A stretch of 32,000 nt of DNA. Origin: Opitutales bacterium (GTDB lineage Bacteria > Verrucomicrobiota > Verrucomicrobiia > Opitutales > UBA9783). The translations under genes and the position numbers were made by a program. The notes beneath the pieces are model-generated. The model did not search any database. It had not been told where the DNA came from and saw only the letters and a list, made by a program, of their open reading frames with translations. The stretch covers positions 1-32,000 of the forward strand of contig JBKSMP010000008.1 of assembly GCA_046881885.1 (NCBI GenBank), read 5' to 3'. Below are positions 18,876 to 26,582 of the stretch, in pieces (the first letter of the stretch is position 1; each line of letters begins with the position of its first letter).

Positions 18876-20523
18876 TCAACAAATTTGCAGTTACAAAAAT
18901 CAACAAATTACGTTTTTGCGATGTTTGACCTTTTGATGTAAATAATTTTCCTAAAAGTGGAATGCTACCAAAAACTGGTACTTTATCTTTTGTTTCCTTA
19001 ACTTCTTCGCGCGTTAACCCTCCCATAACCAATGTGGCACCGTTGGCTAAAGAAACTTCGGTTTTAATACGTCGAGTTGAAAAAACAGGCTGATAATAAC
19101 CAGAATCGTAGGATTGAACATTTGTCCCATAGGTTATAATATTACTACCTCCATAGGGCACAAATCCTTCTAATTCGGTAACACAAGGTTCGAGCGACAA
19201 GTGAATGCGATCATTGCTTTCAACTAAAGGTACAACACTCATTTCAACACCGACATTACGTGTAACAAAATTTTCAGGGACCCCTGCAATAATAGCTGTT
19301 CCAGCTGATGATGCATCCGAATGTTTACTTCCGACTTCAGCGCGACCATCACGAAAACTTTCTGGATAACGCAACTCTTGTGCAACAACAATTTCTGCTT
19401 TTCTACCCGACAAAACGGTTACTTTAGGCGTACTCATGAGGTCCGAATCAGAACGTTGCTCAATTGCACGCAAAATAAATTGCATCTGGTAACGATTAAG
19501 GATGGTATTAGTATTTAAAAAATCTCCAACGCTATTACCGAAATCAAGCGCATTAGGAAATTTAGGAATAGCTGATGTGGTGTTTTCAAGAGTTTCTTTA
19601 CTGGCCCATTTGATACTGTCAAGTTGAGACAAAGGACGCAAAGTTGTTGTGGTATCAACTTTAACATTATTATTGTTTTTACCTGAATTCCAACGCAAAC
19701 CCAACTCCTCCAAAACTCCTTGTTGGATATCTAAAAATTTAGTTTCAATAGCAACCTGAGGCAAAGGTTTATATTGTTGAAGCAAGGTTTGAATACGGCA
19801 TAAAACATCTGGATAATGCGTTACAACAATCCGACAACCATCATAAGCAAAGCCAACACCTTCTTCGGTCCAAGAAACACCAATTTTACCAAAAAACTCC
19901 TTAAGTAAGGCTTCATCTGAGAGCAATTTTTCTTTCTCTATAAAAGGCGATTGAGCATAGTTCAAAATCTGTAGAACGCTTCCACGAGATACCGGAAAAA
20001 CTTGTGTACGTAAATCTAATGTACGCTTTATACCATCTCGAAACACGACCACATTGCCCTCAATCTGAAAGGAAAAGTGTGTCATTTCACAAATATAACG
20101 CAAGATTTTCTCCAACGATAACGACTGTACATTGAGATCCACGCAAGGATCTTTATGTTCAGGATCGATAAGCACAAAACTAACCCCCTTGCCTTCTAAA
20201 TCGTAAACACCAGAAAACTCTGTTAAAAACGTTAATGCTTTTGACAATGGCAATTGACTTAAATTGACTTTGGGAATAACGATACGTGTCAATTGCTCAC
20301 TCAGAGACTGTTTTTCACAAAGATTTTTGTTAACGTCATTAAGTTCACTAGGGCTCGTCATTTCTGCAGGTTTAGACACCAGCCAAGTCTCTTGAATATC
20401 TTTCAAAAGTGCTTCATGAACTTCCTTGCGCTCATCTGCGCTTAACAAATTCAAAAATAAGAATGAAATAGTAAATAGCGTTAAACACGCTCTGTTAGCT
20501 TTATTATTACCTAAATTATTCAC
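18820..20523 (-). CDS. Secretin (type II/III secretion system / PilQ-GspD superfamily outer-membrane channel)
   Basis: 567 aa with an apparent GTG start preceded by AGGTG. Signal peptide: ..LFTISFLFLNLLSA-DE. The N0/STN-like segment is IVIPKVNLSQLPLSKALTFLTEFSG. The canonical secretin C-domain includes STPKVTVLSGRKAEIVV, GVEMSVVPLV, TRRIKTEVSLANGATLVMGGL, VPVFGSIPLLGKLF and LLIFVTANLL. Confidence 0.9.
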   Translation of the reverse strand: MNNLGNNKANRACLTLFTISFLFLNLLSADERKEVHEALLKDIQETWLVSKPAEMTSPSELNDVNKNLCEKQSLSEQLTRIVIPKVNLSQLPLSKALTFLTEFSGVYDLEGKGVSFVLIDPEHKDPCVDLNVQSLSLEKILRYICEMTHFSFQIEGNVVVFRDGIKRTLDLRTQVFPVSRGSVLQILNYAQSPFIEKEKLLSDEALLKEFFGKIGVSWTEEGVGFAYDGCRIVVTHYPDVLCRIQTLLQQYKPLPQVAIETKFLDIQQGVLEELGLRWNSGKNNNNVKVDTTTTLRPLSQLDSIKWASKETLENTTSAIPKFPNALDFGNSVGDFLNTNTILNRYQMQFILRAIEQRSDSDLMSTPKVTVLSGRKAEIVVAQELRYPESFRDGRAEVGSKHSDASSAGTAIIAGVPENFVTRNVGVEMSVVPLVESNDRIHLSLEPCVTELEGFVPYGGSNIITYGTNVQSYDSGYYQPVFSTRRIKTEVSLANGATLVMGGLTREEVKETKDKVPVFGSIPLLGKLFTSKGQTSQKRNLLIFVTANLLNEDGKTFASPELPTQQTF

Positions 20524-20656
20524 GTGACACCTGACATTTTTATGCCCTACTGTTAATATGCTTATAAATAAGATTTCTTTTCTACAAGCGAAAAATAAGA
20601 ATTTTTTGAAAAGAGCTTGCCAAAAGGGTCGTAAGTCATTGTAAAATAGTGGAATT

Positions 20657-20902
20657 ATGCCAACTTACGATTACAGTTGTAGTTCTTGCGGAAAAACATT
20701 AGAAATATTTCATTCCATAAAAGAACCTGCAAAAACAATCTGTCCTTATTGCCAGAAACCAACATTACAAAGAAAAATAGGAGAAGGTGCAGGACTTATT
20801 TTTAAAGGACGTGGATTTTATGAAACGGACTATAAGCATTCTTCAAGATGCGATCAATGCTCTAAGAAGGGGGATGCAGCAGCATGCCCTCACAAAGCTT
20901 AA
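20657..20902 (+). CDS. FmdB-family zinc-ribbon protein
   Basis: 81 aa. MPTYDYSCSSCGKTLEIFHSIKEPAKTICPYCQ carries CxxC..CxxC, followed by KGRGFYETDY, which is typical of the FmdB/CxxC_CxxC_SSSS family. The C-terminal tail has a further C-x2-C-x8-C-x-H. Confidence 0.8.
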   Translation: MPTYDYSCSSCGKTLEIFHSIKEPAKTICPYCQKPTLQRKIGEGAGLIFKGRGFYETDYKHSSRCDQCSKKGDAAACPHKA

Positions 20903-22001
20903 GGGAAAATCTCAAGAAGACGTCCTTCGTTTTATTCATAAGCAAGGATGGCAGTATAGTGAAATTGCTCCTAAGGTCGGCGTTTTAGGTATTGATAAGC
21001 CTTTACCGCAAAACTCCATTGAAAAGCTTGAGCAAGCCTTAGGTTGTCAGTTGCACGTTTATGTAAGTTCTAAAAATGTGCTTTTAGATGCAGACACAGA
21101 TATCTTTTACAAAAATAAACGTTTACATTCCGTTCTAGAAAAAGCTTATCAATTACGTGCTTCAGACATTTATTTAACGGTTTATCCCGAAAAAGCCGTT
21201 TTAAAGTTTAAAAGCAAACGAGATTGGGTTCAACACGAAACGCTTACCTTTAATGTTGGAGAACATTTATTAAAAAGCTTTCTTGTTTTAGCACGCTTAA
21301 ATTTTGATATAACGCGTCGGCCTCAAGAAGGTCATTTTCGTTATGAGTACGAGAATAAAATTTTATTTTGTCGTTTGTCTTATCTTGCGAGTTCGGTTAC
21401 ACAAAGTTTAGTTTTGCGCTTATTAAGTGAAGATTTATTTCCTTTTTCAATAAAAACCTTAGGCTTACCCAACGATTTACTCCATTTTATTGATCATAAA
21501 TTAGAATTTAATGGCATGATTCTTATTTCTGGAGCTACAGGAAGCGGCAAAACAACAACCTTATACGCTTTAGGTAAATTGCTTTGTCAAAAAGGATTAA
21601 AAGTGATTTCCTTGGAAGATCCTATTGAGGCCGAGATAGATGACTGGACGCAAACAGAAGTAGACACAAAAGCTGGATATACATTTGAAACTAGTTTAAA
21701 AGCAGTTTTGCGACAAGACCCTAATGTTATTCTTATTGGAGAAATTCGAGATAACGAAACCGCAAAAGCAGCTTTTTACGCTTGTTTATCTGGATATTTG
21801 GTTGTGGCTACCTTACACGCTCAACATATCGAACGCGTCGCAATGCGTTGCCACGAACTGGGAATCGATTTCAATCTTTTTAAGGATAATATTCAACTAC
21901 AAATCCATCAATCTTGGGATATGAATTTTAAAAAAGATTCGCCAAAATTTCAGTGGATTTCTAGACCTAAAACAGAAATAACAAAAACAGAAAATCCTTA
22001 A
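20874..22001 (+). CDS. Short PilB/GspE-family secretion ATPase (ATPase 2), paralogue of ATPase 1
   Basis: The track ORF begins at 20787 (404 aa). The ATG at 20874 gives 375 aa and places ASDIYL at the same distance from the N-terminus as CSDIHF in ATPase 1, so I prefer it; it overlaps the zinc-ribbon gene by 29 nt. Motifs: RRPQEGHF, Walker A GATGSGKTTT, Asp box SLEDPIEA, Walker B ILIGEIRD, His box SGYLVVATLHAQ with the first His replaced by Tyr. It ends about 60 aa after the His box. Confidence 0.85.
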   Translation: MQQHALTKLKGKSQEDVLRFIHKQGWQYSEIAPKVGVLGIDKPLPQNSIEKLEQALGCQLHVYVSSKNVLLDADTDIFYKNKRLHSVLEKAYQLRASDIYLTVYPEKAVLKFKSKRDWVQHETLTFNVGEHLLKSFLVLARLNFDITRRPQEGHFRYEYENKILFCRLSYLASSVTQSLVLRLLSEDLFPFSIKTLGLPNDLLHFIDHKLEFNGMILISGATGSGKTTTLYALGKLLCQKGLKVISLEDPIEAEIDDWTQTEVDTKAGYTFETSLKAVLRQDPNVILIGEIRDNETAKAAFYACLSGYLVVATLHAQHIERVAMRCHELGIDFNLFKDNIQLQIHQSWDMNFKKDSPKFQWISRPKTEITKTENP

Positions 22002-22044
22002 AAAAAGATTGCCTTTCCATTTTTATAAATCTATAAGTAAAGGC

Positions 22045-23247
22045 ATGTGGAAGGTTATTGGTGCATTACTTGTATTTTCTTTATCGGTTAATTATGGTTT
22101 TACGAATGATGTAAAAGAAAAAACAATTTCTGAAAAGTCGCCTCAAGTCGTTTCGGCAAATGAAAATCAGGAAGCCGTACCTGTAAGTATTGAAACAAAA
22201 GATTTAAAAACAGAAGTTAAGAACATAAGTTTAGAAAAAATAGAAGACAATAAAACTTATGAAGATAGCAAAGGATCTTTTAGAGAACGTGTCTTTAAGA
22301 AAACTCCATCTTTAGCAAGTTCCGTAATTATCAAAGTTTATAACCAAGGGAAGTTCATGGGAATTGTTTTAATTGAACGGGGACGTCCTCCTTTGGGGAA
22401 AGCCCTCCCTGGCGGCATTATTCGGTACGAAGAAACCTGTGAAGACTGTGTTGCGAGAACAGCTCGTGATGAATGTGGCTTAAACATTCAAAATATGAAA
22501 CAATTTCATGTTTATTCAAGTTCTGATCGAGATCCTCGAACCCACATGATCGATATTGTCTTTACTGCCCAATGTACCGAATTCATTCCTTCTGCTGGAA
22601 CAGATGCCAAACATGCTTTTGTTTGTCCTATTAATGAAATCCCATGGGATCGTTTGGCCTTCGACCATGCTCAAATTTTAAAAGACTTTTTAGAGTTTGA
22701 ATTAAGTAAAGACAATAAAGATTTGAAACAAGATCTGAGTTTTCCGACCATCGTAGATAAAAAAGAACGCGAAGAAAAAGATCTTAAAGAAATCTCTAAA
22801 AATGCCTATAGGCCTCCATTATTAGCAACGACTGTCATCATTGAAGTCTATGAAAAAGATATGTTTAAGGGTATTGTTATGATTGAACGCGGCTTAGAAC
22901 CTTACGGCAAAGCACTGCCAGGTGGACCTGTTCAGTATGGCGAAACAGTTCAATATACCGCTAAACGCGAAATGAAAGAAGAATGTAATTTGGATCTAAC
23001 TGATGTAAAGCAATTCCGAGTTTATGATTCTCTTAATCGAGATCCTCGCAGACGTTGTATTGATGCGGTTCATATTTCACGTTGTGATAATGTAATCCCA
23101 CAAGCCGGTTCAGATGCCGCAAAACTTTGGGTCTGCCCTCTCGATAAAATTCCTTGGGATGAGCTTGCTTTCGATCACGCAGAAATCTTAAGAGATTATC
23201 TTGTTTGGCGTGAAGGTGCATTTTATCAGCAGTTACATAATCCGTAA
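22045..23247 (+). CDS. Putatively exported protein with two tandem Nudix-fold domains
   Basis: The track ORF starts at TTG 22009. I prefer the ATG at 22045 (MWKVIGALLVFSLSVNYGF.., a hydrophobic signal or anchor). A Lys/Glu-rich spacer precedes two homologous domains. The domain 2 Nudix box is close to consensus: GPVQYGE-TVQYTAK-REMKEECNL. The domain 1 box is degenerate: GIIRYEE-TCEDCVA-RTARDECGL. Confidence 0.8.
   Translation: MWKVIGALLVFSLSVNYGFTNDVKEKTISEKSPQVVSANENQEAVPVSIETKDLKTEVKNISLEKIEDNKTYEDSKGSFRERVFKKTPSLASSVIIKVYNQGKFMGIVLIERGRPPLGKALPGGIIRYEETCEDCVARTARDECGLNIQNMKQFHVYSSSDRDPRTHMIDIVFTAQCTEFIPSAGTDAKHAFVCPINEIPWDRLAFDHAQILKDFLEFELSKDNKDLKQDLSFPTIVDKKEREEKDLKEISKNAYRPPLLATTVIIEVYEKDMFKGIVMIERGLEPYGKALPGGPVQYGETVQYTAKREMKEECNLDLTDVKQFRVYDSLNRDPRRRCIDAVHISRCDNVIPQAGSDAAKLWVCPLDKIPWDELAFDHAEILRDYLVWREGAFYQQLHNP
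22309..23208 (+). repeat. Intragenic tandem duplication: two Nudix domains offset by exactly 170 codons (510 nt)
   Basis: I hand-aligned aa 101-230 with aa 271-400 of the track ORF without gaps. I counted 67 identical positions out of 130, for example VIIKVYNQGKFMGIVLIERG..GKALPGG versus VIIEVYEKDMFKGIVMIERG..GKALPGG, and IPWDRLAFDHAQIL versus IPWDELAFDHAEIL. Confidence 0.8.
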
Positions 23248-23259
23248 AAAATTTTACCT

Positions 23260-23280
23260 ATTCTAATTATTTAGAATTTT
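23260..23280 (+). terminator. Possible weak terminator after the Nudix gene
   Basis: ATTCTAA-ttat-TTAGAAT (7-bp all-A/T-rich stem) followed by TTTT, 13 nt after the stop codon. This is weak, and chance occurrence is plausible in AT-rich DNA. Confidence 0.3.
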
Positions 23281-23398
23281 TAGAAAAACTGCTTGTAGAA
23301 TTTAGCTAGTAGTTGGTTTGCAAAAGCTTTGAGATAGTCCAAAGATACGGCATCTTATTATTGCCTTTTTTAGGCTTTGTAAAATGTTTAGTATTGTT

Positions 23399-24367
23399 TT
23401 ACATTTCTTGTAATTCAAAGTACTTTTTCAAAACCAATAAGGCTATTAAATCTTCTTTATTGAGGTCTCTAAATTCAGCTACAAACTTGTGGGCATTTTC
23501 TATGATTTTTAAGGCTTCTTCTGTGTGTTCACTATAATAGTTTAACTTCTCTTCTAAATCCGAATAATCGTCTTTTATTTCGATATAGTGATAATTACCT
23601 TTTAATTTGCCTTCCATAAACCAAGTTTCATATTTAGGTTTTGGCATAACGGCAATAGAGTTAGAAGACATTACCCATTTTAAATTGGAAGCTACGTCAT
23701 TACCTTCTAAACACAGGATAAATTTATACTTTAAATGTCGACTTATGGGTAATAAATCCGCGTGCCATTCAGGATGAATATCTTTACGGCCGACATGTCC
23801 TAAGTTACACAAAGGATGATGGAAGTATTTCTCATAAAATTGCTCTCTGTGTTTCTGATAGATTCCACCACGCCCTATTAATAAATTTTGCTTGTCTTCA
23901 AATTTATTGGTATCGTTGACGAAAATAAAATGTCGAACCTTGTCTAAATTTAAAAGAATGGAGTTTTGATTGTTTTCTGTAATAGGTCTGCTTTTTACAA
24001 TTTGTGGAAATTCAGGTATATGTGTTACATCGCCAAATGTAAAAGCAAGCTTATTTTCGGGATTAAAATATCGAGTGTATTGATACGTATCCCAAAAGTA
24101 CGTATGAGGTCTATAATTATTACCCAATGTAAAATCTTTAATTTTTATAAACGTATCGTTAGTGCAATAAGATTTTTCCAGTTTGTTGTAATAATTTAAT
24201 CTAGCGTTGATAGCTGACTCATCGTAGTTCCTTAAAAGCGATAACTTATTTTCCAGCTTTTTTCGGCAAAAACAATTTGGAATGCAATACCTGCCTAAAT
24301 TCCTCAAATTATACAGTAGTTTACTGTTTTTATCTTTTCTAGATTCTAAATATAAAATAGGATTCAT
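23399..24367 (-). CDS. Glycosyltransferase family 90 (CAP10 / LpsA-like, lipopolysaccharide-modifying) protein
   Basis: 322 aa. The C-terminal region YKFILCLEGNDVASNLKWVMSSNSIAVMPKPKYETWFMEGKLKGNYHYIEIKDDYSDLEEKL matches my recollection of the Glyco_transf_90/CAP10 signature (YKY..dG...S.rl..ll.s.Svv......ff...L.P..HYv.v..d..dL). Confidence 0.75.
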   Translation of the reverse strand: MNPILYLESRKDKNSKLLYNLRNLGRYCIPNCFCRKKLENKLSLLRNYDESAINARLNYYNKLEKSYCTNDTFIKIKDFTLGNNYRPHTYFWDTYQYTRYFNPENKLAFTFGDVTHIPEFPQIVKSRPITENNQNSILLNLDKVRHFIFVNDTNKFEDKQNLLIGRGGIYQKHREQFYEKYFHHPLCNLGHVGRKDIHPEWHADLLPISRHLKYKFILCLEGNDVASNLKWVMSSNSIAVMPKPKYETWFMEGKLKGNYHYIEIKDDYSDLEEKLNYYSEHTEEALKIIENAHKFVAEFRDLNKEDLIALLVLKKYFELQEM

Positions 24368-24397
24368 ACGAATATTGCAGCCCTTCTAATAAGAAGC

Positions 24398-25816
24398 TTA
24401 GAAACTTCTCAAATACTTATCTACTTTATCGGTTGTAATAATTCCATAGTTGATGGTACCAAGCCAGCCTGACATGATAATACCGACTGAACCTGAATGA
24501 TAGAGTCCGGAAACATGATCTGGAAGCTCCATGGAAACTTTCAATCCTTCGAATTTGGTTCCAAAAGAGGCACCTTCAAGGTGTTGCGTATAACGATTAA
24601 AAGTCTTTGGGGTTGCGACTTCAATCCAACCTAATTTTTCTTCAATATTTGGAATAAAGTGATTTAAAGATTGCAGTGTTTGTGTTTTTAGAGCTTCTTT
24701 TGCGTTATTATAGGCTTCTTCAGACAGATTTTCCCAATCTTTCCACAAAGCATTTGTGGATGCAACGATCGTATAACGAGGTGTTTTACTTTCAGGGCGA
24801 ATACTTGGATAATAAATCGAGAATGTACGGCTGCGGGTTCCGAACGCTTTTAATTCTGCGCTCGAGAAATTAGGTTCGTCAGATGTAAAGATAAGATCAC
24901 CAATTTCAGGGAAAGATTCGCCTTCTTTTAAGCCCATATAGACTTGGCAAGAACTATTATTGAGGCGTACAGCTTCTGTTTGTTTTCTAAAACTACTGTC
25001 GATAGCATCTTCAGGCAACCATTTCAAGATTGTGTTTTTTAAGTTTGCGTTGGAAACAATGGCTTTACATTCGATGGTAACACCATTGACTTGTAGCCCG
25101 CAAACGCTTGCTTTGCCTTCTTTTTCTTGTGTAAAGATTTTCTCAACTTGGGAGCGTTTGGCTATCGTAACGCCGTTTTTAATCAATTCGGCAGTCATCG
25201 CTTCAATGAGCTTATCGGTTCCGCCCTTAAACGTATAAACGCCCTTGCTCATGAAATTCGAGAAAACAATTCCATAAGTAATAGCTGGATCATCTAACGT
25301 AGATCCGTTTGCATAGGTGATAGGCTCCATCAATAAGCGGTGAACATCCGGACGATTGGGGAAGAATTCTTCAAATAATTCGCCGGTTGTGCGATGATCA
25401 TCATCGTAGAAATTCATACCACGTAGATGATTAAAGAAGTTTTCAACGACCTCAGGAGAAAGCTTAAAATGATGGATTAATTTGTCCGTAAAATCTTTGC
25501 GATCAAAGGTTGTGTCGAAGTTAAATTGTGGATTAACAAAGCGGATATGGGGCAATTGTACGATGGAATTAGCGATGTCGGCATTCCAATAACGTCTACA
25601 GGATTTGATCATGCCGATTGGAAATCCATGCAACGATACGTCAAATGTGAAGCCTCCGGGACGCTTAAAGTAAGCGGCAAGACCACCTAATTGGAAGTGT
25701 TGTTCGAGAAGCAAAACTGAATGTCCCATTTTTGCTAATCCGTTTGCAGCTGTTAATCCCGATAATCCGCTGCCGATTACACAAACATCATATGATTTTT
25801 TGAATTGCCAAGCCAT
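24398..25816 (-). CDS. FAD/NAD(P)-dependent oxidoreductase, phytoene-desaturase (CrtI)/amine-oxidase-like family
   Basis: 472 aa. The N-terminal dinucleotide-binding motif is [37 protein letters not shown]. Length and the C-terminal hydrophobic end fit the family. It lies 30 nt upstream of the GT90 gene on the same strand. Substrate unknown. Confidence 0.8.
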
Positions 25817-25901
25817 GTTTATAAAATTTCCTTAAATGTTATCATCTAATTCTATTTTTTTAAAAAGAGCAAAACTTTTTTTCGTTATTCTGTAATAAGT
25901 A

Positions 25902-25918
25902 CATGAAAATTTTTCATG
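25902..25918. promoter_or_regulatory. Perfect 8+1+8 palindrome, candidate operator upstream of the flavoprotein/GT90 operon
   Basis: CATGAAAA-T-TTTTCATG lies 86-102 nt upstream of the ATG at 25816. No binding protein is known, and this could be chance in AT-rich DNA. Confidence 0.3.
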
Positions 25919-25970
25919 AGATTGAACTTTTTGCAAACAGTCAAGAATGAGAAGTTTATTCAATGAAAAT

Positions 25971-25994
25971 GCCGGCAGAGAAGTTCCTGCCGGC
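25971..25994 (-). terminator. Intrinsic terminator after the small secreted-protein gene
   Basis: An 8-bp GC-rich stem, GCCGGCAG (25971..25978) and CTGCCGGC (25987..25994), has an 8-nt loop. On the minus strand it is followed by ATTTTCATT. It lies 28 nt downstream of the stop at 26022 and is conspicuously GC-rich for this region. Confidence 0.5.
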
Positions 25995-26021
25995 CAATAA
26001 TAAATAATAGAAAGGGTAGTT

Positions 26022-26315
26022 TTAATATTGTTCCCAAGGATCATCCTCTGCGAAAGCTTGCATGTTTTCTGCAAAGTAATCTTTAGGTTGTATGGCTTTT
26101 GCCTTATCATTGGATGTTTTTTCTTTCTTGGCTTGCAAGAAATCGGAAAATGCATTTTCAATAGCAAACATTTGTTTTTGGGTTGTTTGGGCGGGCAAGC
26201 TTTCCAGTTTTTTTGTTTTTGTTTGCTTTTTTGCCCCCATGGCTATGGTGGTAAAACAACATAATGCGATCAAAGAATGTTTCGATAATGTTTTTATAAA
26301 AGTTACAAGTTTCAT
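26022..26315 (-). CDS. Small secreted hypothetical protein
   Basis: The track ORF is 104 aa from 26336. The internal ATG at 26315 gives MKLVTFIKTLSKHSLIALCCFTTIAMGA.., a plausible signal peptide. The mature part is Lys/Gln-rich and ends with an acidic tail, DDPWEQY. The downstream hairpin terminator supports expression. No family recognised. Confidence 0.5.
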   Translation of the reverse strand: MKLVTFIKTLSKHSLIALCCFTTIAMGAKKQTKTKKLESLPAQTTQKQMFAIENAFSDFLQAKKEKTSNDKAKAIQPKDYFAENMQAFAEDDPWEQY

Positions 26316-26582
26316 ATCCTTTAAAAAAGAAAGCAAAAATCGTGCCTAAATATTGTCGATAAAGTTTAAGGTGGGAAATTTTCTCAACTTATCAAATCCA
26401 TTGTTATGCAAGTAATTGTCCATAATATTATTGTAAAGTAAGGATTGCTTTTTGCAAGTGGAAAATGCTTGTTGGGGTTTTGCAAAATTTTTATTAGTTG
26501 CATTTCAAGCTTAGGTTTTCAAATTTGTAGTATTTTTTTTCTTGCCAAATTTGTAAAAAGAACACAAATAAATATTAATACA

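Follow-up and report, generated by a model that had tools for sequence, protein, structure and literature searches.

The stretch of DNA analyzed here (hereafter, the window) comprises 32,000 nucleotides of an Opitutales bacterium from the Verrucomicrobiota (positions 1 to 32,000 of contig JBKSMP010000008.1, assembly GCA_046881885.1), and our interest centers on a gene at 22045..23247 on its plus strand that encodes a protein with two Nudix domains in tandem. The gene appears in the list of open reading frames with 400 codons plus stop, its product (called protein P0001) carries two Pfam NUDIX matches, and the public gene call is the same 400-residue protein. An alternative in-frame TTG at 22009 would extend the reading frame to 412 amino acids; close homologues all begin at the equivalent of the ATG, with M[WRL][KR].

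Starting from the N terminus, we assigned a predicted Sec type-I signal peptide to residues 1 to 20 (22045..22104), based on the sequence, its homologues, a crude signal-peptide rule, and AlphaFold. It is followed by a disordered spacer (residues 21 to 85; 22105..22299), recognized by its predicted local distance difference test (pLDDT) scores and by a composition rich in K and E (10 of each), whose length and sequence differ between subgroups of homologues. This arrangement agrees with a preliminary description of the gene, made from the letters without database searches, which had noticed a hydrophobic N terminus and a charged spacer of about 70 residues. Nudix domain 1 (d1; residues 86 to 221, including an N-terminal arm; 22300..22707) was delimited by a Pfam stretch at residues 94 to 215 and by its match to the PDB entry 2yyh. 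In the inter-domain region (22708..22815), AlphaFold models place a disordered linker (residues 222 to 237), a helix (residues 239 to 252), and an A-Y-R-P-P arm, and the second Pfam stretch marks Nudix domain 2 (d2; residues 258 to 391; 22816..23217), which has a near-canonical box.

The Pfam model NUDIX (PF00293) matches the protein twice (E value of 6.7e-24; 84.8 bits against a cut-off of 21.1), and the two halves are repeats of each other. When the d1 half was compared with the d2 half by BLASTP, 68 of 133 positions were identical (51%) with no gaps (E value of 2e-52), close to the 67 of 130 gapless positions that had been counted by hand, and the anchors PSLASSVII (residue 88) and PLLATTVII (residue 258) are offset by exactly the 170 codons given earlier. 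At the nucleotide level the two halves of the gene are only 57% identical, indicating that the repeat is old and not an assembly artifact. The Nudix boxes were located by motif position and by the column consensus of the subgroups. The d2 box (G294-x5-E300-x7-R-E-M-K-E-E-C-N-L316; 22924..22992) follows the canonical signature GX5EX7REUXEEXGU, with the sole exception of the final G, which is replaced by N315. The d1 box (G124-x5-E130-x7-R-T-A-R-D-E-C-G-L146; 22414..22482) fails the signature: in R138-T-A-R-D-E143, the first Glu is changed to Thr and the second to Asp, so that one carboxylate is lost and one is shortened. The preliminary description had read the same two boxes, REMKEE and RTARDE, and had noted the loss of a Glu, to which the change at the second Glu is now added.

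Clade membership and duplication history

By sequence, both domains of the tandem protein fall into the NadM/NrtR (ADP-ribose-type) clade of Nudix proteins. Its best NCBIfam matches are to NrtR and NadM-Nudix models (E values of 1e-8 to 1e-9), all of them below cut-off: the NrtR model, on which d1 scores best, gives 47.5 bits against a cut-off of 400, and the NadM-Nudix models give 35 to 37 bits against cut-offs of 354 to 409. The closest solved structure, in the sequence search as well as in Foldseek, is 2yyh from Aquifex aeolicus (E value of 8e-32, TM-score of 0.93 to 0.94, root mean square deviation [rmsd] of 1.2 Å; E value of 9.4e-33 for d1), followed by Enterococcus 2fml, the Shewanella complex of NrtR with ADP-ribose (ADPR) 3gz8, the NadM-Nudix structures 2r5w, 2qjt, and 2qjo, and Bacteroides AraR 5bs6. 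The 2yyh protein (O67435) is about 46% identical to either domain and has the RDPR, AG.DAK, and L.FDH motifs in common with them, but it is a single domain of 139 amino acids with a canonical REMREE box and no signal peptide and is presumably cytoplasmic. Both halves of the tandem protein end in IPWD.LAFDH..IL, a motif that the preliminary description had associated with ADP-ribose-type (NrtR/NadM-like) proteins. This association proved correct, since LAFDH is also present in the NrtR-family structures 2fml and 3i9x, and LIFDH in AraR 5bs6. The alignments further contain RDPR in 2yyh, 2fml, and 3i9x (RDPG in AraR 5bs6) and AGDDA in 2fml and 3i9x. The Pfam scan and subfamily assignment that had been proposed as a check thus gave two NUDIX matches of the NadM/NrtR type.

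Comparison with the characterized members of this clade reveals both likenesses and differences. NadM-Nudix proteins belong to the same sub-clade by sequence and fold, and d2 has a catalytic-type box like that of these ADP-ribose pyrophosphatases, but the tandem protein has no NMNAT domain (no CTP_transf_like by Pfam), scores far below the cut-offs of their models, bears an export signal, and is a tandem. NrtR and AraR (3gz5/3gz8, 2fml, and 5bs6) are in the same sub-clade as well; they form dimers whose Nudix box is perturbed and which bind ADPR or L-arabinose but do not hydrolyze it, one subunit's N-terminal arm completing the site of its neighbor (PMC2330246, PMC4666351). It is this perturbed-box state that d1 resembles, but Pfam finds only NUDIX in the tandem protein and no winged helix, the protein carries an export signal, and the d1 box is fixed instead of randomly degraded. 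The same kind of Pfam scan did detect NrtR_WHD in P0135 and P0145. Given the lack of a winged-helix domain and the export signal, the tandem protein cannot be a transcription factor.

What chemistry to expect is suggested by the cytoplasmic nearest relatives, which are fusions with Macro, cytidylyltransferase-like (NMNAT), or inositol-monophosphatase domains and which point to ADP-ribose/NAD chemistry. An ADP-ribose pyrophosphatase activity of the tandem protein is therefore predicted from its clade membership and from the Macro and NMNAT fusions of its relatives, and the public label of these proteins (“8-oxo-dGTP diphosphatase,” or none) is almost certainly wrong. We rejected an assignment to the RppH/IalA/InvA type, because the RNA pyrophosphohydrolase model NF001937 gives 16.5 bits against a cut-off of 139. 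Bartonella IalA, Rickettsia InvA, and Escherichia coli RppH (YgdP) are likewise Nudix hydrolases, and they are linked to invasion phenotypes, but they belong to another Nudix subfamily, so that IalA and InvA, which had been offered as precedents for a host-directed role, are poor ones. All three are cytoplasmic proteins and are not known to carry a signal peptide.

In a scan of the genome collection we found 29 full-length tandem homologues, which are confined to metagenome-assembled genomes (MAGs) of uncultured Opitutales and Verrucomicrobia (UBA1183); two of the MAGs derive from Hadza gut samples. Among 1.84 billion cluster representatives, only 2 full-length tandem forms were present. The 29 proteins were divided into subgroups a (P0001 to P0010, including the window protein), b (P0011 to P0022), and c (P0023 to P0029). 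The best single-domain matches align to d2 together with the preceding helix and the AYRPP arm, and 12 of the 13 best single-domain relatives have a hydrophobic, signal-like N terminus. It is this signal-bearing single-domain family to which d2 is closest (53 to 59% identity). A profile of the single-domain relatives retrieves 1171 proteins at an E value below 1e-20, the top ~120 of which are nearly all 167 to 190 amino acids long. Named members of about 176 amino acids come from Candidatus Protochlamydia phocaeensis, “Chlamydiae bacterium,” and “Verrucomicrobia bacterium GWC2_42_7,” and all 32 of the ~176-residue proteins that were fetched have an N-terminal signal-like segment and a canonical REMxEE box. 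Clustered at 90% identity, this family amounts to at least about 115 clusters (proteins P0123 and P0269 to P0382; examples at L029:6001-6531, L032:6001-6525, and L033:6001-6723). On sequence grounds, the tandem protein belongs to a large set of exported Nudix proteins from Verrucomicrobia and Chlamydiae that has not been described before.

In a neighbor-joining tree, the d1 clade and the d2 clade (the latter from subgroups a and b) are sisters and are nested among the exported single-domain proteins, which indicates that the tandem protein arose by duplication of an already exported Nudix unit. Tandem Nudix architectures have also appeared independently elsewhere in the clade (2xNUDIX+NrtR_WHD, Zn-ribbon+2xNUDIX, and 2xNUDIX+NMNAT), and this fits a clade that works as a dimer.

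Two side observations concern the C-terminal ends of these proteins. The tandem proteins of subgroup a have a conserved tail ending in [NK]-P (...QQLHNP; window positions 23227-23244), and the same kind of ending is found in chlamydial single-domain proteins (P0123, P0270, and others) as ...MIKP, MLKP, or MPKP; such a tail might cap the structure or serve as a sorting cue. Additional modules at the C terminus occur in some exported single-domain Nudix proteins, namely, TPR repeats in P0126 (447 amino acids) and, according to a precomputed Pfam listing, PF14534 in P0335 and PF06108 in P0361, both C-terminal to the Nudix domain, which suggests protein-protein interactions outside the cytoplasm.

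The predicted N-terminal export signal

The first residues of the tandem protein can be divided into an n-region (MWK), a 12-residue hydrophobic core (VIGALLVFSLSV), and a c-region (NYGFT), with a likely cut before N21 (NYGFT|ND). By rule, these are the features of a Sec type-I signal: a positive n-region, an h-region within 7 to 15 residues, and small residues at positions −3 and −1. Homologues have candidate sites at the same place (GFA|N and GQA|D and, in another subgroup, LSLGIISAQA|A), and several of their signals, the last among them, are textbook examples. We also applied a crude rule of our own making, which looks for a hydrophobic N-terminal segment followed by small residues at −3 and −1 and is supportive only. 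It was positive in 22 of the 29 tandem homologues, in 11 of 13 single-domain relatives, and in 28 of the 32 ~176-residue proteins (39/45 exported-type single-domain proteins in total) and in none of 9 cytoplasmic relatives, whose Nudix domain stands at the very N terminus. Where the rule failed in the exported groups, the cause was mostly a truncated gene call or a slightly overlong uncharged run. Conservation of the segment thus supports the view that the N terminus of the tandem protein behaves as an export signal. Genes for LpxK, an OmpA-family protein, and a secretin in the window mark the host as a diderm, so that Sec export would bring the protein at least to the periplasm.

Other kinds of N terminus were considered and rejected. 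A lipoprotein would require a lipobox, and there is neither a lipobox nor any Cys in residues 1 to 25; a Tat substrate is not compatible with the n-region MWK, which has no RR; and a pilin-like N terminus was dismissed because no prepilin motif occurs anywhere in the window. We also dropped a disulfide argument for an oxidizing compartment, since C144 is invariant but its d2 equivalent lacks the partner Cys in subgroup b.

Could the protein nevertheless be an ordinary cytoplasmic house-cleaning enzyme whose hydrophobic N terminus is an artifact of the start codon or of annotation? Known Nudix substrates are located inside the cell, and Nudix enzymes are almost always cytoplasmic. In a large review of the Nudix clan (PMC5389931), neither signal peptides nor the periplasm nor secretion is mentioned, and a crude rule such as ours yields false positives. 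However, the ATG and the hydrophobic segment are conserved in independent assemblies, and the spacer remains an open reading frame in all homologues. The first internal Met after the start is at residue 103, inside d1, so that a shorter start would truncate this domain. Moreover, dozens of single-domain relatives, drawn from at least 115 clusters, share this N-terminal signal. Taken together, these points make a cytoplasmic location very improbable.

A different question is whether the signal is removed. The Thr at position −1 is an uncommon and weak cleavage residue, which opens the possibility of an uncleaved signal anchor, in which case the flexible spacer of 65 residues would hold the Nudix pair at the inner membrane, on its outer face; the uncharged run of 18 residues in the tandem protein and the long, disordered K/E spacer, which is typical of tethers, would fit such an arrangement. 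We nonetheless consider an anchor unlikely, given that the hydrophobic core measures only 12 residues, that clear small-x-small sites stand at this position in the homologues (GFA|N, GQA|D, and AQA|A), and that subgroups b and c have a much shorter spacer. Cleavage and a periplasmic location are what we would predict from the sequences.

Our literature searches returned no report of bacterial Nudix proteins exported by Sec, nor any of tandem Nudix proteins. They did return signal-bearing Nudix effectors of eukaryotic plant pathogens (oomycetes and Colletotrichum). In these, a Nudix domain likewise stands behind a secretory signal, but the effectors are single-domain proteins that use eukaryotic secretion of the endoplasmic reticulum type and are translocated into the host; we set them apart by their description and not by sequence.

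Conservation and the predicted pairing and activity of the two domains

Comparison of the three subgroups shows that d1 is the better conserved domain. Between subgroups a and b, the mean identities of the two domains are nearly the same (59.8% in d1 and 59.9% in d2), and they diverge once subgroup c is included: 53.9% in d1 against 35.3% in d2 for a versus c, and 58.4% against 35.1% for b versus c. Invariant columns number 24 in d1 versus 13 in d2. The variant box of d1, R-T/A-[AL]-x-D-E-C-G, is fixed in subgroups a, b, and c, and the domain retains RDPR, GTDAK, and IPWD.L.FDH in all of them. In subgroups a and b, the d2 box is canonical, and E300, R308, E309, E312, and E313 are conserved at 100%, except for two of them at 92% in b. 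By these sequence comparisons, the family has its constant part in d1, which is frozen in a non-canonical state rather than decaying into a pseudo-domain. The preliminary description of d1 as a pseudo-domain thus needs correction, and it is instead d2 that degenerates in one subgroup (below).

Biochemical work on this clade offers an interpretation of the altered box. The Nudix protein Slr1690 has a kcat of ~1.4e-4 per second, and restoration of its signature led to a 600-fold gain, while SyNrtR and SoNrtR are inactive, yet bind ADPR (PMC2330246). Because a perturbed signature goes along with loss of activity in this clade, the simplest reading for subgroups a and b is binding by d1 and cleavage by d2.

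The structural models suggest how the two domains might be arranged. AlphaFold gave a pLDDT of 72 and a predicted TM-score (pTM) of 0.68 for the full-length protein, in which the N-terminal part is a helix (residues 2 to 16) followed by disorder (pLDDT below 50 for residues 16 to 84), and a pLDDT of 81 with a pTM of 0.80 for residues 76 to 400, without signal and spacer. The latter pTM would be hard to reach unless d1 and d2 were placed confidently relative to each other, so that a fixed intramolecular pairing is predicted. Foldseek found no PDB chain that spans both domains: the best query-normalized TM-score was 0.40, which corresponds to one domain, and the alignments to NUDT12/NudC had an rmsd of 15 to 20 Å. 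A possible template for the pairing is the SoNrtR dimer, in which the N-terminal arm of one subunit reaches the adjacent monomer and Tyr10 hydrogen-bonds the adenine of ADPR (PMC4666351). The A-Y-R-P-P arm before d2 and an F-K-K arm before d1 occupy the equivalent position; the AYRPP arm is conserved, and together with its helix it is also present in the single-domain exported relatives. We infer that d1 and d2 may mimic the geometry of a Nudix dimer. An intramolecular mimic of this kind had been raised in the preliminary description, and its pairing component is backed by the models, while its view of one partner as a pseudo-domain is not.

Based on these lines of evidence, we favor the reading that the tandem protein is an extracytoplasmic, pseudo-dimeric pyrophosphatase or binder of the ADP-ribose type, with a probability of about 0.5. 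The protein would be exported by Sec and reside in the periplasm, from where it might be released further. In an Opitutales ancestor, the whole “helix-AYRPP arm-Nudix” unit of an exported single-domain protein of the Chlamydiota/Verrucomicrobia kind would have been tandemly duplicated, and the two halves would now pack together as an intramolecular version of the dimer that is usual in the clade. The second domain (REMKEE) is predicted to act outside the cytoplasm and to hydrolyze an ADP-ribose-like nucleoside-diphosphate-X, such as ADP-ribose, NAD(H), or a related dinucleotide, and the first (RTARDE) is predicted to bind the same class of ligand with little or no hydrolysis, providing a second regulatory or capture site. 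Its most likely role would be the processing of environment- or host-derived pyridine and adenine nucleotides ahead of uptake. If this scavenging hypothesis is right, the tandem protein would presumably do the same job as NadN, the periplasmic NAD pyrophosphatase of Haemophilus influenzae. This is a functional analogy only: the fold of NadN is unrelated (5′-nucleotidase/UshA family), and we claim no homology.

Several observations speak against this reading. The d2 domain of subgroup c has the box RHxKEK and has lost RDPR and GxDA, with d1 being retained. Judging from these sequences, the family can live without a canonical box, and its family-wide function may reside in d1, which might be catalytic with an altered box, or hydrolysis might be dispensable. 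No NCBIfam model reaches its cut-off for the window protein, P0011, P0023, P0123, or P0367, and the closest structure, 2yyh, had no assigned function in the 2017 survey of the Nudix clan (PMC5389931), so that the substrate is a matter of prediction. With regard to export, our signal-peptide rule also fires falsely on Rossmann and P-loop N termini in the window, the Thr at −1 is uncommon, as mentioned above, and the mature protein would contain 9 Cys; this odd number speaks neither for nor against an oxidizing compartment. Finally, no transporter or NAD-pathway gene is adjacent to the tandem-Nudix gene, and its context gives no hint of a nucleotide-uptake pathway.

The behavior of subgroup c, where no canonical box is left in either domain, is also an argument for a non-catalytic protein, that is, an extracytoplasmic binder or sensor of ADP-ribose, a sugar, or a sugar phosphate, in which d1 binds and hydrolysis by d2 is incidental or lost. 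The part that is conserved in all subgroups is the non-canonical d1, which also has the best score on the NrtR model, and the NrtR clade has repeatedly given rise to ADPR or L-arabinose sensors (PMC2330246, PMC4666351). On the other hand, if there were no catalysis, the retention of E300, R308, E309, E312, and E313 by d2 in subgroups a and b would be difficult to account for, the canonical REMxEE box persists in the parental family of exported single-domain proteins, and no transporter, sensor kinase, or chemoreceptor is encoded nearby. We therefore regard a pure binder as a rather unlikely alternative to the combination of a hydrolyzing d2 and a binding d1.

Beyond the single gene, it is tempting to speculate that Chlamydiota and Verrucomicrobia share a truly extracytoplasmic Nudix family that acts on NAD/ADP-ribose-type nucleotides arriving in the periplasm from a host cell or the gut lumen, and that its Opitutales duplicate has become an asymmetric single-chain pair in which the R-T-x-x-D-E site has taken on a new job; we offer this broader proposal tentatively, as possible but not probable. 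If true, this would be the first description of bacterial Nudix enzymes that are periplasmic or secreted, and the new job of the fixed R-T-x-x-D-E site might be high-affinity capture or sensing, or an altered chemistry. What would be new is the compartment and the single-chain asymmetric pair, not the fold or the likely chemistry. Nudix proteins are treated as cytoplasmic enzymes with house-cleaning or regulatory tasks; a conserved family with signal peptides would take the superfamily into a new compartment, and it would point to an unrecognized step in how host-dependent and gut-dwelling Chlamydiota and Verrucomicrobia handle external NAD/ADP-ribose-type nucleotides. The tandem form would moreover represent a natural experiment on the conversion of a homodimeric enzyme into an asymmetric single chain, with one site frozen in a non-canonical form in every lineage and the canonical site lost in one of them.

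Gene neighborhood and other features of the window

The tandem-Nudix gene lies directly downstream of a pilus-type cluster (16342-22001), in which two PilB/GspE/ComGA-like ATPases on the plus strand flank an Amuc_1098-like secretin on the minus strand; the gene order is peptidyl-prolyl isomerase (PPIase), ATPase 1, orphan, secretin, ATPase 2, and Nudix gene. ATPase 1 (16342-17457, plus strand) is preceded by the PPIase gene and followed by an orphan of 473 amino acids (17454-18875, minus strand) whose N terminus includes a hydrophobic segment and which matches nothing in Pfam or NCBIfam. The secretin, an Amuc_1098-like type IV pilus outer-membrane protein (18820..20523, minus strand), was identified by Pfam Secretin (E value of 1.2e-34) and by the NCBIfam Amuc_1098_fam model (3e-75, below cut-off), and ATPase 2, of the PilB/GspE/ComGA type (20787..22001, plus strand), was identified by Pfam T2SSE (1.9e-59) and by NCBIfam ComGA and GspE matches below cut-off. 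The stop of ATPase 2 at 22001 and the ATG of the Nudix gene at 22045 are on the same strand and leave a gap of 43 nucleotides, exactly as the preliminary description had it. No terminator-like site was seen in this gap, in a promoter/terminator scan that performed no better than on shuffled sequence.

This proximity had led to the suggestion that the Nudix protein is cargo or an accessory of the secretin locus; that is, the protein would pass by Sec into the periplasm and through the secretin to the outside, possibly onto a host. The same strand, the short gap without a terminator-like site, and the fact that a type II substrate needs a Sec signal are in agreement with this idea, and the order ATPase 1-orphan-secretin-ATPase 2-Nudix recurs in L001 and L002, where in L002 a prepilin peptidase (A24) and then an MFS transporter directly follow the Nudix gene. 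However, the order is retained only in these two relatives, at 86 to 88% identity. In L003, L005, and L006 (subgroups b and c; 44 to 53% identity), the Nudix gene adjoins SufS-SufU-Maf with no adjacent secretin. L003 does retain PPIase-ATPase 1 about 5 kb upstream of the tandem-Nudix gene, pointing to rearrangement around an ancestral site instead of a functional link. The neighbors of the chlamydial and verrucomicrobial single-domain genes differ at every locus (SDR and OMP genes, RecBCD, NamZ, and CNNM). In addition, the locus resembles a type IV pilus system, with an Amuc_1098-like secretin and ComGA/PilB-like ATPases; neither a platform protein (GspF/PilC) nor a prepilin motif was found anywhere in the window, nor was an A24 prepilin peptidase, so that this neighbor of L002 is lost here. 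A role as cargo or accessory would be conceivable for this genome, but the comparison with its relatives lends it no support, and we consider it improbable. Because the neighbors differ between the tandem subgroups and the single-domain loci, we also discarded gene context as a guide to function.

Some further features of the neighborhood were observed. The proteins flanking the tandem-Nudix gene in the window (36.8% GC) are 92 to 100% identical to those of L001, except for the 473-residue orphan, with 74%; the orphan is only 66% identical in L002, and the genes flanking it are at 86 to 96%. It is thus a fast-evolving component of the pilus-type locus and is possibly surface exposed. In subgroup b (L003:9282-9848 and 9908-11086), the tandem-Nudix gene lies directly behind maf on the same strand, after sufS-sufU, which places it beside a gene for another nucleotide pyrophosphatase, and in L005 and L006 two opposite-strand genes without a Pfam match are inserted between Maf and the Nudix gene.

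Synteny with L002 breaks about 50 nucleotides past the Nudix stop codon (window 23248-23400 versus L002:11216-11300). Beyond this point, a glycan-biosynthesis cluster (23399-31677) encodes a GT90 protein, an FAD amine-oxidase-like protein, a UDP-glucose dehydrogenase, a GFO/IDH/MocA oxidoreductase, a DegT aminotransferase, a formyltransferase, and a UDP-GlcNAc 2-epimerase and is probably a strain-variable surface polysaccharide locus. Elsewhere in the window, an open reading frame for ATP synthase delta (OSCP; 9799-10188, plus strand) has only 129 amino acids and matches only the C-terminal third of the Pfam model (positions 116 to 172 of 172); the subunit may be truncated or divergent, or its start misassigned. 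A tmRNA gene is located at 403-783 on the minus strand (Rfam, 134.8 bits) and encodes the tag peptide ENNVVKFPSASFAVAA.

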